Origin: Escherichia phage vB_EcoM_VR26
Strand: one strand, 5' to 3'
Sequence record: NC_028957.1
Length of the DNA: 64,000 bases
The position numbers and the translations under genes were made by a program. Shown here one piece after another: positions 3,394 through 33,442 of the stretch (position 1 is the stretch's first letter; every line of letters starts with the position of its first letter). The notes below the pieces were generated by a model. It did not search any database. It was not told the origin of the DNA and saw only the letters and a list, made by a program, of their open reading frames with translations.

Positions 3394-4968
3394 ATGGCAG
3401 GTTTTAATACAATACTAAATTTTCTTAAGCCTTGGGCTAAAGAAGATGAACAAGAATATAAGCAACAAGAAAAAAATAATTTAGAGTCAATGACCGGGCC
3501 GAAGTTTGATGATGGGGCTCGCGAAATTGAGTCACAAGAACAAAACGTCCCGTATAATGCATTGATGCAACAGATGTTCGGGAGCAACGAACCGGAAGTA
3601 AAAAACACCAGGGAATTAATTGACACATACCGCAACCTACTAAATAATTATGAAGTTGATAACGCGGTTCAAGAGATTGTGTCTGATGCCATCGTATTTG
3701 AAGACGGCAAAGATGTTGTAGCTCTTAACCTTGATGCTACCGAATTTAGTCAGAAAATTAAAGACCGAATTCTTGAAGAATTCTCGGAAGTTAATAACCT
3801 CCTTAATTTCGAGCGTAAAGGTTCTGACCACTTTAAACGTTGGTATGTGGATTCTCGAATTTTCTTCCACAAAATTATCAACCCTTCAAAACTTAAAGAA
3901 GGCGTTCAAGAACTTCGTCGCCTTGACCCAAGACAAATCCAGTTCATCCGCGAAATCGTTACACGCATGGAAAATGGTACGAAAATTGTTGACGGTTACA
4001 GAGAATATTTTGTATACGATACAGGTCATGAAAGTTATTGTGCCGATGGTCGTATATATGAAGCGGGTACTAAAATAAAAATTCCTCGTGCGGCAATTGT
4101 ATATGCGCATTCCGGATTACTTGATTGCTGCGGTAAGAATATCATTGGATACCTGCAACGAGCAATCAAACCTGCAAACCAATTAAAACTATTAGAAGAT
4201 GCTTTAGTCATTTATCGTATAACTCGTGCTCCAGACCGCCGAGTCTTTTATATCGATACTGGGAATATGCCGTCTCGTAAAGCAGCAGCACATATGCAAC
4301 ATATTATGAACACGATGAAAAACCGTGTCGTATATGATGCAACTACGGGTAAAATCAAAAACCAACAGCACAATATGTCAATGACAGAAGACTATTGGTT
4401 GCAACGTCGTGACGGTAAAGCAGTCACCGAAGTTGATACTCTCCCAGGTGCACAAGGCATGTCGGATATGGACGATGTTCGCTGGTTTAAGAACAACCTA
4501 TATCAGGCTCTCAGAATTCCATTATCTCGTATCCCTAATGACCAGAACAGCGGCGTTATGTTTGATGCGGGGGCGACAATTACTCGCGATGAATTGAATT
4601 TCTCTAAATGGATTAGACAACTACAGAATAAATTTGAAGAAGTTTTCCTCGACCCGCTTAAAACCAACCTTATCCTGAAAAAAGTTATTTCAGAAGAGGA
4701 ATGGGACAAGGAACTAAATAATATTAAAGTTACGTTCAACCGTGATAGCTATTTCACCGAAATGAAAGATGCAGAAATCATGGAACGCAGAATCAATATG
4801 CTAACGATGGCTGAACCGTTTATCGGTAAATATATTTCGCATCAAACGGCTATGAAGGATTTCCTCCAGATGTCTGATGAAGAAATTAATCAAGAAGCTA
4901 AGCAAATTGAATTGGAGTCCAAAGAGGCTCGTTTCCAAAACCCTGAAGAAGAAGAAGAGGATTTCTAA
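3394..4968 (+). CDS. 20: Portal vertex protein gp20
   Basis: 524 aa (same as T4 gp20); GGAG Shine-Dalgarno; conserved gene order. Confidence 0.95.
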
Positions 4969-5659: not shown

Positions 5660-6297
5660 TGGAACAGAAACCAGAGTTACTAATCGAACACTGGGGTCAA
5701 CCGGGCGAAATTAAAGATGGTGTACCGATGCTGGAATCACATGATGGTTCTGGCAGCGGTTTAAAACCAGGGCTTTATATTGAAGGGATTTTCCTACAAG
5801 CTGAAGTTGTCAACCGTAATAAACGACTTTATCCTAAACATATTTTGGAAAAAGCCGTTGCGGATTATATCGCCGAACAGGTTGAAACCAAGCAGTCACT
5901 TGGAGAATTAAACCATCCGCCCCGTGCGAACGTCGACCCTATGCAAGCCGCAATTATTATTGAAGAAATGTGGTGGAAAGGAAATGATGTATATGGACGT
6001 GCACGAATTATTGAAGGCGACCATGGCCCAGGTGATAAACTTGCCGCAAATATAAGAGCAGGTTGGATTCCGGGTGTATCTAGTCGTGGACTTGGTTCCT
6101 TGACTAAATCAGCCAAAGGTTATAGTATCGTCAACGAAGGTTTTAAATTGACGGTTGGAGTGGATGCAGTATGGGGGCCGAGTGCTCCGGACGCTTGGGT
6201 CAAACCGAAGCAGATTACAGAATCACAAACGGCAGTTGCCGATACCAGTGCCGATGACGCCTTTATGGCTCTCGCAGAGGCTTTAAAGACGTTATAA
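5659..6297 (+). CDS. 21: Prohead core scaffold protease gp21
   Basis: 212 aa, same as T4 gp21; synteny 68-21-22-23. Confidence 0.92.
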   Translation: MEQKPELLIEHWGQPGEIKDGVPMLESHDGSGSGLKPGLYIEGIFLQAEVVNRNKRLYPKHILEKAVADYIAEQVETKQSLGELNHPPRANVDPMQAAIIIEEMWWKGNDVYGRARIIEGDHGPGDKLAANIRAGWIPGVSSRGLGSLTKSAKGYSIVNEGFKLTVGVDAVWGPSAPDAWVKPKQITESQTAVADTSADDAFMALAEALKTL

Positions 6298-6300
6298 ATA
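6293..6300 (+). promoter_or_regulatory. T4-type late promoter TATAAATA for gene 22
   Basis: Exact TATAAATA overlapping gp21 stop, 30 nt before gene 22 ATG. Confidence 0.65.
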
Positions 6301-6329
6301 AATGTATATCTTAACAACAGGACTACAAA

Positions 6330-7148
6330 ATGCTTAAAGAACAACTCATCGCCGAAGCTCAGACCATCGATGCTTCCGTTGCTCTTGATAGTATTTTCGA
6401 ATCAGTTAATTTGTCCCCGGAAGCGAAAGCTACCTTCGGCACTGTATTCGAAGCTACCGTCAAGCAACACGCCGTTAAACTGGCAGAAATGCACATTCAG
6501 AAAATTGCTGAAAAAGCAGAAGAAGAAGTAGAAAAGAATAAAGAAGAATCTGACGAAAAAGCAGAGAAAAAACTGAAAGAATCCGCAGCTAAATTCCTTG
6601 ACCACGTTGCTAAAGAGTGGCTGGCAGAAAATAAACTGGCTGTTGACCGTGGTATTAAAGCTGACCTGTTCGAATCCATGTTTACTGGCATGAAAGAACT
6701 GTTTGTTGAGCACAACGTTGTTGTTCCAGAAGACTCTGTTGATGTTGTTGCAGAAATGCAGGAAGAACTGGAAGAGCAAAAAGCTGAAACCGCTAGTCTG
6801 TTCGAAGAAGTTTCTAAGCGTGATGCTTATATCAATTATGTCCAGCGCGAAGTTGCGTTGACTGAAGCGACCAAAGACCTGACCGAATCTCAGAAAGAAA
6901 AAGTTGGTTCTCTGGTAGAAGGTATGGATTATTCCGATGCGTTCGGTACCAAAATTGGCGCTATCGTTGAAATGGTTAAAGGTCAGGTAGACACCGCCGA
7001 AAAACCTATCACCGAAGCAGCTATAAATAATTCTGTAGACGATGCTGCGGCACTGAATTACATCTCAGAAGCAGTTGAAGAAAAAGGCGCCAAGCCTACC
7101 CTGTCCTTCGCGGACTTGTCTGCTCTCGCAGCATCACGAATTTCTTAA
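6330..7148 (+). CDS. 22: Prohead scaffold protein gp22
   Basis: 272 aa, Glu/Lys-rich coiled-coil-like; T4 synteny. Confidence 0.9.
   Translation: MLKEQLIAEAQTIDASVALDSIFESVNLSPEAKATFGTVFEATVKQHAVKLAEMHIQKIAEKAEEEVEKNKEESDEKAEKKLKESAAKFLDHVAKEWLAENKLAVDRGIKADLFESMFTGMKELFVEHNVVVPEDSVDVVAEMQEELEEQKAETASLFEEVSKRDAYINYVQREVALTEATKDLTESQKEKVGSLVEGMDYSDAFGTKIGAIVEMVKGQVDTAEKPITEAAINNSVDDAAALNYISEAVEEKGAKPTLSFADLSALAASRIS
7022..7029 (+). promoter_or_regulatory. Candidate late promoter TATAAATA inside gene 22 3-prime end (for gene 23)
   Basis: Exact TATAAATA about 140 nt upstream of gene 23 ATG; no other canonical motif nearer. Confidence 0.4.
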
Positions 7149-28236: not shown

Positions 28237-30288
28237 CTATGAAAGGAATTTAGGAGGAATACTTTCCAAATTAATACAACTAGCAAGAATACCAAGACCT
28301 TGGTTGACTTTCTTCGTCACCCTGGAGGATGCAAACGATGCGAAGTCAACAGATTCTTCTGGTTCCTCGCCTTTATAAACGACAAGCTCGCCAGTTTCCA
28401 TCAACACATCACCATCATAGATAACTGCATTTTCATCCAGTTGGTCAGTGGTCTGAATGTCAGCTTCCAGCATTTTGACGTTCGCATTTCCTTGATACGA
28501 CGCATCTGTAATCTTTGTAATCTTAACTATAGTTCCACGAGGAAGAATAACTTCCTGCTCGGATGGGTTGCCTGACAATTCACCAGGAACAATTACGTTA
28601 ATTAAGTCCGCTCCAGAAATTTTCCAACCGACATGCATCATTACGTGGTCGCGGCGGGCATCCGGCATATCTGGTAAAACAATTTCGTCATCAGCCTGGA
28701 AAGATGTCCCATCACGATAGTCCTGATGAACTGCGGCCATAGCAACGTTCGCCACCCAGCCACCAAAGATAATCGGTTTAAACGACGTTGATACATAGTT
28801 CCTGAAATAAAATAATTTAGATTTCTTAATTTTATCAAATGTAGGAACGTTTAAATATTGACCACGCCAAAGAGTTGTATTAGGCGGCAACTTATGTCCA
28901 ATTTCAAAGGCCGAATCCAATTCCTTAATTGTTTCGACAACTCTGTCTAGATTTAGGAATTCAGCTTCTTCTTCATAATATTTGCCCATCAAATAATTAT
29001 TAATATCGGCATAGTTTGCTCCACAATAATCTGCAATTGCTTCTCGCTGGCCATAATGGAAACGGTTGTCAGTATACCCTGCTGTGAAATTAAGAGTATT
29101 TTCTGATGCTTCTTCGGCAAAGTCTTTAACTGCAACACGAATGGCGCTTGTGTATTCTTTTTCCCAGAGCGTGGCTGCATAAGTGGCTGCATCCAGGTTA
29201 GGAGGAGCATCATTCATTTTTCTTTCGATAAATGCGGCTTTGCGAAGGTTAAGAATCTCTGCACATGATTCGGCAAAAATCTGCATCTGCTTCATACTAC
29301 CAACTGGAGCACGTTTAAGTTCACGGTGCATACGGTTAAAAATTGGGTCAGTATCTTCAACACGAATTTCTTCTTTCCAAACACCATTTGCTCGCATAGC
29401 CGTATCTGCTGCGCGCATACGTGCCATAGTATTCGTTTCAGAAGGCCGAACAAAAATTTCCAGTTCTTCGGCATCATCAATTAATTCAGCAGTTGCAGGT
29501 CGACTAAACTTAGCAGCTTCTGCATCAATTTCGTCCCAACCTTCTGGCACGGAATCACTTGGTGCGTACTGGGCTTGTGCAATAGCTCGGCGACTGATTT
29601 TAGTTTTCTGGGCAACAGCAGCGTCGGTCTTTTTGTTTGCTGCGTCAATCAGAACTTCGGCTGCGATTTCTTGTTTGGAGACTTGAGCACCTGTATCTTT
29701 ATTGGTGAATACATCGCCAACTTTAGTTTCAACTTTTTGATATTTCTCAGGGACTGGTGGCATACCATCAACCGAAAGCAGGTCAACACCCTTTTTGTAC
29801 ATAATTACATAAGCGTTCTTTTTACCGAGGCCAGAAGCATTCGGAAGAACATGATAACGCCCGCTGGTTTTCATTTGAATCAGTCGATTCATAATACGAA
29901 TAACAGCTTGGTCTTGTCCTTTCATCTTTTTGGATGGGAAACGGAACAAGACTACATCAGGTTTACCTAGTTTAATGCTTTCCCAGACTGTAACAAAAAT
30001 CAGGTTAATCGCGTCAAGAGGTTTTTCACCTAGACCACCCTTCAGAGGAACAGCATGGCCATGTGAAGTCCCGGATAACAGAAATACCTCGGCAATCGCA
30101 TCACCGCGTTTATATTGTTTAACCGTTTCTTTGCCCGTGAATTGCATCAAACGAGCCATAAGAGAATTTGTCCCAGGAACACCGAATTGCCAAACCTGTG
30201 GGACCTTGTATTTTGGGTTCATATTAATGACAGGATAACCGAAGGCTTCGATATATTTGTCAAAGAGTTCATTTAATTGTTCAGACAT
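28237..30288 (-). CDS. alt: Alt ADP-ribosyltransferase (packaged into heads)
   Basis: 683 aa (T4 Alt 682 aa); position between genes 54 and 30; late promoter upstream. Confidence 0.9.
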   Translation of the reverse strand: MSEQLNELFDKYIEAFGYPVINMNPKYKVPQVWQFGVPGTNSLMARLMQFTGKETVKQYKRGDAIAEVFLLSGTSHGHAVPLKGGLGEKPLDAINLIFVTVWESIKLGKPDVVLFRFPSKKMKGQDQAVIRIMNRLIQMKTSGRYHVLPNASGLGKKNAYVIMYKKGVDLLSVDGMPPVPEKYQKVETKVGDVFTNKDTGAQVSKQEIAAEVLIDAANKKTDAAVAQKTKISRRAIAQAQYAPSDSVPEGWDEIDAEAAKFSRPATAELIDDAEELEIFVRPSETNTMARMRAADTAMRANGVWKEEIRVEDTDPIFNRMHRELKRAPVGSMKQMQIFAESCAEILNLRKAAFIERKMNDAPPNLDAATYAATLWEKEYTSAIRVAVKDFAEEASENTLNFTAGYTDNRFHYGQREAIADYCGANYADINNYLMGKYYEEEAEFLNLDRVVETIKELDSAFEIGHKLPPNTTLWRGQYLNVPTFDKIKKSKLFYFRNYVSTSFKPIIFGGWVANVAMAAVHQDYRDGTSFQADDEIVLPDMPDARRDHVMMHVGWKISGADLINVIVPGELSGNPSEQEVILPRGTIVKITKITDASYQGNANVKMLEADIQTTDQLDENAVIYDGDVLMETGELVVYKGEEPEESVDFASFASSRVTKKVNQGLGILASCINLESIPPKFLS

Positions 30289-30313
30289 AATAGGTTCCTT
30301 ATAAAATATGATG

Positions 30314-30321
30314 TATTTATA
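30314..30321 (-). promoter_or_regulatory. Late promoter TATAAATA (minus) for alt
   Basis: Exact motif on minus strand 26 nt upstream of alt ATG. Confidence 0.6.
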
Positions 30322-30324
30322 CTA

Positions 30325-30345
30325 AAAAAGGCCGAAGCCCTTTTG
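30325..30345 (-). terminator. Putative imperfect hairpin terminator after gene 30
   Basis: GGC-cgaa-GCC core with flanking A/T runs. Confidence 0.4.
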
Positions 30346-31888: not shown

Positions 31889-32167
31889 TTAGTCGTTGGC
31901 TCTATTATATGCCACGTCTTCCAAAAGCAAATCCAGACGCTTATGATAAGTGAACACAAATTTCGTGGCACCGTCTGGTTTCATTTTAGTCATGAAGTGA
32001 ACATAAATGAACCCCTGCTCAACACATTCACGCCAAACGGGATTATCTTTAGTCGGATTAATATCAAACGAGTAATCATGATTCACATGACGAATAAACT
32101 GGTTAACATGACCATAATCCATCGTAGTGGTTGGACCACGGTCAGAAATAGTATGAACGACAAACAT
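31889..32167 (-). CDS. Hypothetical protein (30.1 position)
   Basis: 92 aa from internal ATG directly after upstream stop. Confidence 0.5.
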   Translation of the reverse strand: MFVVHTISDRGPTTTMDYGHVNQFIRHVNHDYSFDINPTKDNPVWRECVEQGFIYVHFMTKMKPDGATKFVFTYHKRLDLLLEDVAYNRAND

Positions 32168-32168
32168 A

Positions 32169-32987
32169 TTAACCCCTTCCACCAGTTGGTTGATTGTACC
32201 AGTATTCAATACCAGTACCTACGCGCTGACCATATTGGTATGGATATGCTGGATTATATCCAGGAGTCCATTGTTGACCTGGCTGCCAGCCTTGCTGCAT
32301 TTGTTGTTGAAGACGCCGAGTTTCACGAAACAGTTCTTCCAGTTTATGAAGTTCATCTGGTGTGAATTCTGGTTTGGTCGGTTCATCTTTGTGTTTCAGT
32401 TTAAGCTGTCCGGCAACATCGTCCCAATTAAAAACTTTGGAAGCTGTTTTAGGAATAGCATCACGTTCGCCACGAGCCATCCAATAAACTGGAACTGCAA
32501 GGATTTCACTCGCATGGTCGCAATGGTGAGCAAGGTCATCAATATAACAAATGACATTATATTTGTCTTTTGCCTTCTGGAACAACTCCTCTTTAGAGGC
32601 TGTATGACCACACATCATAACTTCTTTAAACGCACCAGGGAACAAAGCATTCAGGTTGAATTGACGATTCAGACGAGCATCAATGGAATCGCCCAGGGCT
32701 GTAACAGCCACAAAATCATATTGTTCTTTGAGGCTATTAATAACCCTTAACGCATCTGCATAAGGAGACAAATAACGAATAAAATCTGAACAGTTATATT
32801 TCTCAATCAACTGTGCGCCCAACTCTTCATCACAATTGAACAGTTTGCCAGGGGTCACAAATTTTTCATCCTGAATCATCTTAAGGATATGTTCCAGGGG
32901 TAAATTGTATTTTTGGGCGAAATAAGGCAAGCCAGACTGCCATGACAAACATACGCCATCAATGTCTGTTAAAATAACGGGTTTCAT
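32169..32987 (-). CDS. HAD-superfamily hydrolase-like protein with Gln/Tyr/Pro-rich C-terminal tail (30.2 position)
   Basis: 272 aa; N-terminal motif LTDIDGV (DxDG[TV] of HAD enzymes, as in 5-prime(3-prime)-deoxyribonucleotidases); low-complexity tail QQQMQQGWQPGQQWTPGYNPAYPYQYGQ. Confidence 0.55.
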   Translation of the reverse strand: MKPVILTDIDGVCLSWQSGLPYFAQKYNLPLEHILKMIQDEKFVTPGKLFNCDEELGAQLIEKYNCSDFIRYLSPYADALRVINSLKEQYDFVAVTALGDSIDARLNRQFNLNALFPGAFKEVMMCGHTASKEELFQKAKDKYNVICYIDDLAHHCDHASEILAVPVYWMARGERDAIPKTASKVFNWDDVAGQLKLKHKDEPTKPEFTPDELHKLEELFRETRRLQQQMQQGWQPGQQWTPGYNPAYPYQYGQRVGTGIEYWYNQPTGGRG

Positions 32988-33442
32988 AATGCATCTCTCA
33001 ATTGGTTAAGTATGTCAATAAATTCTTGTTCAGTCAATATTGTATCATGAACAGTAAGGTGGCTCGCCATCGAATGCTTTAAAACTTTGCCCTTTGTAGC
33101 TTGTAATGCGTCGCGGAATCCTTTGTTTTGGAGAGCTGCTTCAAAATATGCACTTGTATACAACTCTTTCCATGCTGCAGAGTATCTTGAAAAGGGAATT
33201 CCAAGCCAGAAAAGCGTCCCACGGTCCGCAGCTCTTGCATAAGCTCTTCCAGTTTGTTGTGCGACCAGCCCGGACATCCCAAATATACGTTTTTGTTGTT
33301 CATAATTTCTCACCTTGCACCCTTGGAGGAAGCCTTCAAGACCTCCAAACTGGATACCATCCATAACAAAAGGCCATTTGGCAAAGTTACTTAATGCACA
33401 TGATGGCCACGGGAAATTGCTTCTGATTTCTAACTCAGACAT
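32984..33442 (-). CDS. NADAR/YbiA-like domain protein (30.3 position)
   Basis: 152 aa from ATG; LSNFAKWPFVMDGIQFGGLEGFLQGCK resembles the NADAR SNF...F..DG...S.E..FQ..K signature. Confidence 0.55.
   Translation of the reverse strand: MSELEIRSNFPWPSCALSNFAKWPFVMDGIQFGGLEGFLQGCKVRNYEQQKRIFGMSGLVAQQTGRAYARAADRGTLFWLGIPFSRYSAAWKELYTSAYFEAALQNKGFRDALQATKGKVLKHSMASHLTVHDTILTEQEFIDILNQLRDAL

Follow-up and report, generated by a model that had tools for sequence, protein, structure and literature searches.

Gene 30.3 (adfN) of Escherichia phage vB_EcoM_VR26, located in the 64,000-nucleotide stretch of sequence record NC_028957.1 that was analysed in this study (the window), very probably encodes a functional AdfN, a small free-standing ADP-ribosylglycohydrolase with a NADAR fold. 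For the window allele itself, the sequence and a structural model document an intact gene of the AdfN family, with the fold and the catalytic residues, an undamaged C-terminus and conserved synteny. Its enzymatic activity and its anti-DarTG1 phenotype we infer from the 85%-identical T4 protein. The function as such is already known; it was published in 2023-2025, and the identical protein is present in the GenBank record of phage VR7 (HM563683).

The open reading frame of adfN runs on the minus strand from an ATG at 33442 to a TGA at 32986..32984 and encodes 152 aa (Table 1). The preliminary description had given these coordinates and this length correctly and had named no strand. An alternative GTG start is found three codons upstream of the ATG (33451) and would result in a protein of 155 aa; the annotations of T4 and VR7 use the ATG that corresponds to 33442. 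The 8-nt overlap between 30.4 and 30.3 is an operon-like tight junction. The ATGA overlap between 30.3 and 30.2 is kept in 13 of 81 related loci, and T4 and VR7 are arranged likewise. The G+C content of adfN is 42%, compared to 41% for the window. The adfN product is matched by Phage_30_3 (Pfam: PF08010, 'Bacteriophage protein GP30.3') with an E-value of 3.7e-64 and 215 bits over profile positions 2-138 of 138, where the curated cut-off of the family is 36 bits, and by PHROG 652 with an E-value of 5e-51. Because of these two matches adfN is judged to be a real gene, far beyond a chance ORF. The gene order in the window is alt, 30 (ligase), 30.1, 30.2 and 30.3.

Table 1. Coordinates of adfN, of the features within it and of neighbouring genes in the window.
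Feature	Position	Strand	Remarks
adfN / gene 30.3 CDS	32984..33442	-	152 aa + stop
Overlap of 30.4 stop and 30.3 start	33435..33442	-	8 nt (ATGTCTGA); T4 and VR7 likewise
ATGA overlap of 30.3 stop with start of 30.2 (HAD-like)	32984..32987	-	
N-terminal NADAR signature, residues 17-43	33314..33394	-	LSNF...F..DG......EGFLQ..K; codons verified
E36 (GAA)	33335-33337	-	Invariant; Glu seven residues before K43
K43 (AAG)	33314-33316	-	At least 90% conserved in 77-78 homologs
H123	33074..33076	-	Invariant in 77 homologs; replaces last-strand Glu (YbiA type) / Asp (DarG1 type)
C-terminal alpha-helix, residues 138-151	32990..33031	-	AlphaFold2 model; lost in RB69
alt	28237..30288	-	683 aa; PHROG 802 E 2e-226; Pfam ADPrib_exo_Tox E 2e-19
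Gene 30.2	32169..32987	-	HAD motif I KPVILTDIDGV near start

The 3-kb neighbourhood of adfN has 94.8% DNA identity to Escherichia phage vB_EcoM_VR7 (Straboviridae, Tevenvirinae, Gaprivervirus), whose gp30.3 is 100% identical to the adfN product. T4 gp30.3 has the same length and aligns without gaps at 129 identical positions out of 152. T4 AdfN and the window allele are thus separated by 23 substitutions, and the last-8-residue region reads …ILNQLRDAL against …VLNLLRDSL. Among related isolates the protein is 93-99% identical. T4 and VR7 share the synteny around adfN, with T4 AdfN in the same position between 30.4 and 30.2, near the ligase gene and alt. T4 is a Tequatrovirus, whereas the window phage belongs to the Gaprivervirus group. 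On sequence and gene order, the phage is placed among the Gaprivervirus-like T-even phages, and the window gene is assigned as orthologous to T4 30.3/adfN. Using tblastn, homologs were found in 1509 phage records with identities down to ~35%, in T4-like phages of Escherichia, Klebsiella, Aeromonas, Acinetobacter, Vibrio and other hosts. One of the gp30.3 homologs in our set (P0047) is bacterial and belongs to Methylocystis.

The catalytic residues of NADAR enzymes are a Glu, a Lys at a distance of seven residues from it, and an acidic residue on the last strand (PMC11543638). The last-strand residue is Glu in YbiA-type, Asp in DarT1-associated and His in phage NADARs (PMC11543638; for the substitution also PMC11125620). 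The signature string in the adfN product is L17-SNF-AKWP-F25-VM-DG-IQFGGL-E36-GFLQ40-GC-K43. The motif quoted in the preliminary description is the generic YbiA-type NADAR signature; its key letters SNF, F..DG, E, Q and K are present, but it is not the literal sequence of the adfN product, in which the 'S' before the Glu is Gly and 'FQ' is 'LQ', and its spacing is off by one. In the alignments of 77-78 homologs, P13, L17, S18, N19, F25, E36, G37, F38, Q40, G58, A61, H123, T134, T137 and R149 are invariant. All of these 15 residues as well as K43 are found in the adfN product, and their codons were verified.

Sequence links to solved structures are weak, so the superfamily question was settled by fold comparison. 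We ran AlphaFold2 with a 77-sequence alignment of database homologs, from which the T4 sequence was left out, and obtained a model with a mean pLDDT of 93.8 and a pTM of 0.89. In this model the adfN product has the helical core flanked by small sheets of the NADAR fold, and H123 lies directly after the last predicted strand (residues 120-122). Searched alone against the Pfam NADAR family (Pfam: PF08719), the adfN product gave no match at E <= 1, and scans with PADLOC and NCBIfam gave no significant match. The Pfam NADAR model also matches 23 of the 77 gp30.3 homologs, with a best E-value of 1.5e-7. The sole sequence match in the PDB is YbiA (E 0.61 for the single sequence with phmmer, 0.017 for the 78-sequence profile), and the alignment pairs the SNF, Glu and Lys of its motif SNF...SEHYFQAQK with those of the adfN product. 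Aligning the gp30.3 family profile with one canonical Pfam NADAR in hhalign covered 125 columns with an E-value of 0.072 and put H123 opposite the last-strand Glu. Membership in the NADAR superfamily is based on the predicted fold together with this transitive sequence evidence, and the earlier claim of a NADAR-type protein agrees with both.

The bioinformatic assignment of gp30.3 to the NADARs dates to 2012 (cited in PMC11543638), and Schuller et al. 2023 reported that NADARs hydrolyse ADP-ribose from guanine in DNA and act as DarT1 antitoxin (PMC11543638). According to Cihlova et al. 2024, T4 gp30.3 removes guanine-ADPr and not thymidine-ADPr in vitro (PMC11125620). T4 30.3 now bears the name adfN, for anti-DarT factor NADAR. 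Johannesman et al. 2025 (Nat Commun) traced the resistance of T-even phages against DarTG1 to the 3' part of this gene, and found T4 adfN to be necessary and sufficient for it (PMC11825919). Purified AdfN strips ADP-ribose from DarT1-modified DNA and does not bind to DarT1 (PMC11825919). In a T4 transposon screen, 30.3/adfN was dispensable on E. coli K-12, and insertions in it were completely lost on a DarTG1 host (10.1101/2025.11.20.689424). DarTG1 resistance has been shown for the T4 and T2 alleles (PMC11825919). The phages tested, as far as the accessible part of the published material lists them, are T2, T4, T6, RB69 and Bas35-47, with no Gaprivervirus allele among them.

Transferred to the window allele, infection of a DarTG1 host would activate the DarT1 toxin, which would ADP-ribosylate guanines of the phage DNA and block replication. 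AdfN would hydrolyse the N-glycosidic guanine-ADP-ribose bond and free ADP-ribose, with E36 and H123 predicted to contact the distal ribose and K43 the phosphates. Unmodified DNA would be restored and the phage could replicate. AdfN would act as an orphan, type-IV-antitoxin-like counter-defence factor that works without toxin binding. The preliminary description had raised a possible eraser of DNA-base ADP-ribosylation with relevance to DarT. This is borne out by the T4 ortholog, which counters DarTG1 as a DNA glycohydrolase acting on guanine-ADP-ribose (PMC11825919, PMC11125620, 10.1101/2025.11.20.689424). The checks proposed with it, a fold search, a de-ADP-ribosylation assay on DarT-modified DNA and plaque assays with DarTG-carrying hosts, are already available for the T4 protein.

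In uninfected cells DarT1 toxicity is not rescued by T4 gp30.3 (PMC11125620, PMC11825919), and full activity of T4 AdfN requires a T-even infection, with non-T-even phages being rescued weakly (PMC11825919). Thus a T-even-specific factor or context is missing from the mechanism. We considered gp30.2 because such a factor has been inferred in the literature and because 30.2 is translationally coupled to adfN. That AdfN and gp30.2 form a two-enzyme module for DNA de-ADP-ribosylation, with gp30.2 as the T-even-specific factor, we regard as very unlikely. No match to gp30.2 was found in Pfam, NCBIfam or PADLOC, and the match to a 5'(3')-deoxyribonucleotidase (PDB 2jao) is faint (E 0.44). Tevenvirinae have the gp30.2 gene beside 30.3, and so do Acinetobacter phage Ac42 (49% identity) and Morganella phage MP1. 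Using an iterated profile on all ORFs, a gp30.2-like gene was detected next to the gp30.3 homolog in 13 of 81 loci and within 4 kb in 18 of 81. By tblastn it was detected within this distance in 19 of the 82 related loci, which comprise 80 loci from IMG/VR plus Ac42 and Vibrio phage ValKK3, with flanks of 3-4 kb as far as the contigs extend. The loci bearing gp30.2 are essentially those that keep the T-even-like ligase synteny, and in a jumbo-phage-like contig the gene following the gp30.3 homolog is unrelated to gp30.2. The main text of the T4 transposon-screen preprint never mentions 30.2, its DarTG1 discussion covering 30.3/adfN only (10.1101/2025.11.20.689424). Overall, the locus survey weakens rather than supports the idea of gp30.2 as a helper.

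The C-terminus of gp30.2 is a Q/P/Y/G-rich low-complexity tail (…QQQMQQGWQPGQQWTPGYNPAYPYQYGQ…), which varies in length in close relatives, giving proteins of 212-284 aa, and is absent in Ac42. In ValKK3, a distant schizo-T4 phage, a putative 5'(3')-deoxyribonucleotidase gene (L008, 3449-3961) overlaps the end of the gp30.3 homolog. Its similarity to gp30.2 (pairwise E 9e-4) is confined to the region of HAD motif I. The same slot is thus taken by a HAD enzyme though the flanking genes, which encode exonuclease subunits, differ from T4. No relatives of this HAD neighbour were found in the other loci of the set.

By its sequence the adfN product is placed in the gp30.3/AdfN-T4 clade, all defining features that can be read from a sequence being present. 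In the published phylogeny the gp30.3 proteins are nearest to the DarT1-associated NADARs (PMC11825919). The DarG1/DarT1-associated NADARs (BC4488 family; E. coli C7 and Geobacter lovleyi, PDB 8bat; Schuller et al. 2023) are encoded adjacent to DarT1, and DarG1 has 219 aa with an N-terminal extension and a last-strand Asp, whereas the adfN product has neither an adjacent DarT nor the extension, and carries a His. For these reasons the adfN product is, on sequence features, not a DarG1 antitoxin. Moreover, DarG1-type NADARs act as antitoxins, whereas T4 gp30.3 fails as an antitoxin in uninfected cells. AdfN-Bas32 of a T5-like phage and AdfN-Bas60 of a Vequintavirinae phage are likewise phage-borne orphan NADARs that reverse the DarT1 modification (PMC11825919). 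Unlike AdfN of T4, they belong to other NADAR clades, were independently acquired, work without the T-even context and neutralise DarT1 in uninfected cells. Two further anti-DarT factors are known from T-even phages. AdfM, the T4 Tk.4 macrodomain protein, is also an orphan antitoxin-like hydrolase (10.1101/2025.11.20.689424), but its fold is that of a macrodomain and its target is DarTG2 (thymidine). AdfA, a DarT binder of the T4 61.2 type, is non-enzymatic, unlike AdfN.

We found no DarT-like gene adjoining adfN, its neighbours being 30.4, which has no function assigned, and the HAD-like 30.2. The nearest ADP-ribosyltransferase is Alt, which is of the ARTC type and not a DarT. Its family, PHROG 802, is described as 'Alt-like RNA polymerase ADP-ribosyltransferase', and the known targets of Alt are arginines of host proteins. 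The preliminary description had proposed that the phage encodes a writer and an eraser. Both genes are indeed encoded, with alt where it had been placed, but a functional link between them is not borne out. In 13 of 82 loci the gp30.3 homolog has an Alt-like gene no more than 4 kb away, and all 13 have the T-even synteny with ligase and 30.2; in ~63 more distant loci unrelated genes surround the gp30.3 homolog. The proximity of Alt is limited to the loci with T-even synteny, so there is no specific linkage, and Alt was rejected as functional partner of AdfN. A phage-internal pair, in which the adfN product would erase the marks of the phage's own Alt (or ModA/ModB), is therefore very unlikely, even though Alt is encoded on the same strand at a distance of four genes and belongs to the ARTC class (Pfam ADPrib_exo_Tox), like the guanine ADP-ribosyltransferase ScARP, whose product T4 gp30.3 reverses in vitro (PMC11125620). 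The link to Alt amounts to co-residence in a conserved synteny block, and the reported NADAR substrates speak against the pair, guanine-ADPr in DNA being hydrolysed and thymidine-ADPr not (PMC11543638, PMC11125620). In addition, T4 adfN has a phenotype on DarTG1 hosts only and is dispensable on plain K-12 (PMC11825919; 10.1101/2025.11.20.689424). The writer known to be opposed by AdfN is DarT1 of the host, not Alt of the phage. Between alt and the ligase gene (30289-30345) there is no alt.1 ORF, as in VR7 and unlike in T4 and RB69.

Natural loss-of-function alleles of 30.3 are known. RB69 was the only DarTG1-sensitive phage, and the insertion of a T deletes the last 15 residues of its gp30.3; RB69 is rescued by adfN-T4 supplied ectopically, while the E36A and K43A mutants and the truncated form are impaired, and truncation lowers the activity of T4 AdfN (PMC11825919). 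The protein database also contains truncated homologs, with lengths of 89-126 aa. That adfN in the window is such a decayed or inactive allele, leaving the phage no longer protected, is nevertheless highly improbable. In a DNA alignment of the window, T4 and RB69, the extra T of RB69 truncates the protein after ...DTILT, and the window is without this insertion. The window gene encodes the full length of 152 aa with the complete C-terminal helix and 15/15 invariant residues, and has E36, K43, H123 and the intact helix in common with T4 AdfN. Protein identity in VR7 and the high conservation in the related isolates are consistent with purifying selection.

The short gp30.3 entries in the database (P0004-P0006 and P0013-P0019) have 80-94% identity, and some of them are from complete phage genomes, namely SV76, UGJNEcP4 and NR1. 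They may be truncated or frameshifted alleles as in RB69, or miscalled starts. If these short alleles are real, AdfN loss is recurrent in T-even phages.

YbiA and the Pfam NADAR family (Pfam: PF08719; PDB 2b3w), as well as the Phytophthora NADAR (8bau), have a Glu on the last strand. The similarity of YbiA to the adfN product is below the family threshold, and because His123 stands where YbiA has this Glu, the adfN product is not classed as a member of the YbiA subfamily. In the model and by analogy, it probably shares fold and chemistry with both the YbiA-type and the DarG1-type NADARs. The processes linked to YbiA proteins are swarming motility and the metabolism of riboflavin, and phage counter-defence is not among them. 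A housekeeping role of the adfN product as YbiA-type N-glycosidase on riboflavin-pathway intermediates or other small-molecule ribosides, and not on DNA, can be given almost no weight in view of this His, of the phylogenetic proximity of gp30.3 proteins to DarT1-associated NADARs, and of the T4 ortholog, which works on ADP-ribosylated DNA and has a DarTG1 phenotype.

Inside adfN, the ORF 30.3' (33079-33303, minus strand, +1 frame, 74 aa) is annotated in T4 and VR7, is matched by Pfam DUF2883 with an E-value of 8e-24 and is preceded by AAGGTGAG, which is Shine-Dalgarno-like. In most T-even relatives no stop interrupts the +1 frame for 76 codons; it is broken in RB69 (40 codons) and in locus L013 (61 codons). 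As distant homologs with unrelated DNA also have +1 stretches that are open for 60-75 codons, 30.3' may be a compositional by-product rather than a gene, and we did not retain it as a real overlapping gene. The gp30.1 gene (DUF3045; 31889-32209, minus strand) can be read as 106 aa from a TTG start, and is annotated with 92 aa in VR7 and 89 aa in T4. A promoter scan yielded 21 promoter-like sites compared to 15.8 ± 3.8 in shuffled controls; these are consensus-level matches and not in excess. Upstream of 30.8, a terminator-like hairpin (35082-35063) is followed by a TTTACA-17-CATAAT site (35042-35014), and judging from the sequence the two may mark the start of a transcription unit.

Two further observations concern gp30.3 homologs in metagenomic contigs. 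The homolog P0110, with 37% identity, is located around 6001-6468 in the loci L003-L006, which come from ENA metagenome contigs of up to 308 kb that are large and phage-like and are densely filled with small genes lacking annotation. A few kb downstream of P0110 there are genes for a NUDIX hydrolase and a Thg1-like protein. ADP-ribose, which the NADAR reaction yields, can be a substrate of NUDIX enzymes. In the 128-kb viral contig IMGVR_UViG_3300033997_000035 (L081), two NADARs of different subfamilies are encoded in tandem with a 4-nt overlap. The first (4001-4456) is of the gp30.3 type (PF08010, E 8e-52) and the second (4453-4890) is a canonical NADAR (PF08719, E 8e-21) with the last-strand Glu kept, which suggests that their specificities may not be redundant.

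What gp30.3 is, how it folds, which chemistry it performs and which phenotype it confers had all been published between 2012 and 2025. The present result adds no new biology; its use lies in annotation and in host-range prediction for T-even isolates of therapeutic or environmental origin. Carrying an intact copy of a characterised counter-defence gene, the phage is predicted to be resistant to abortive-infection systems of the DarTG1 type.
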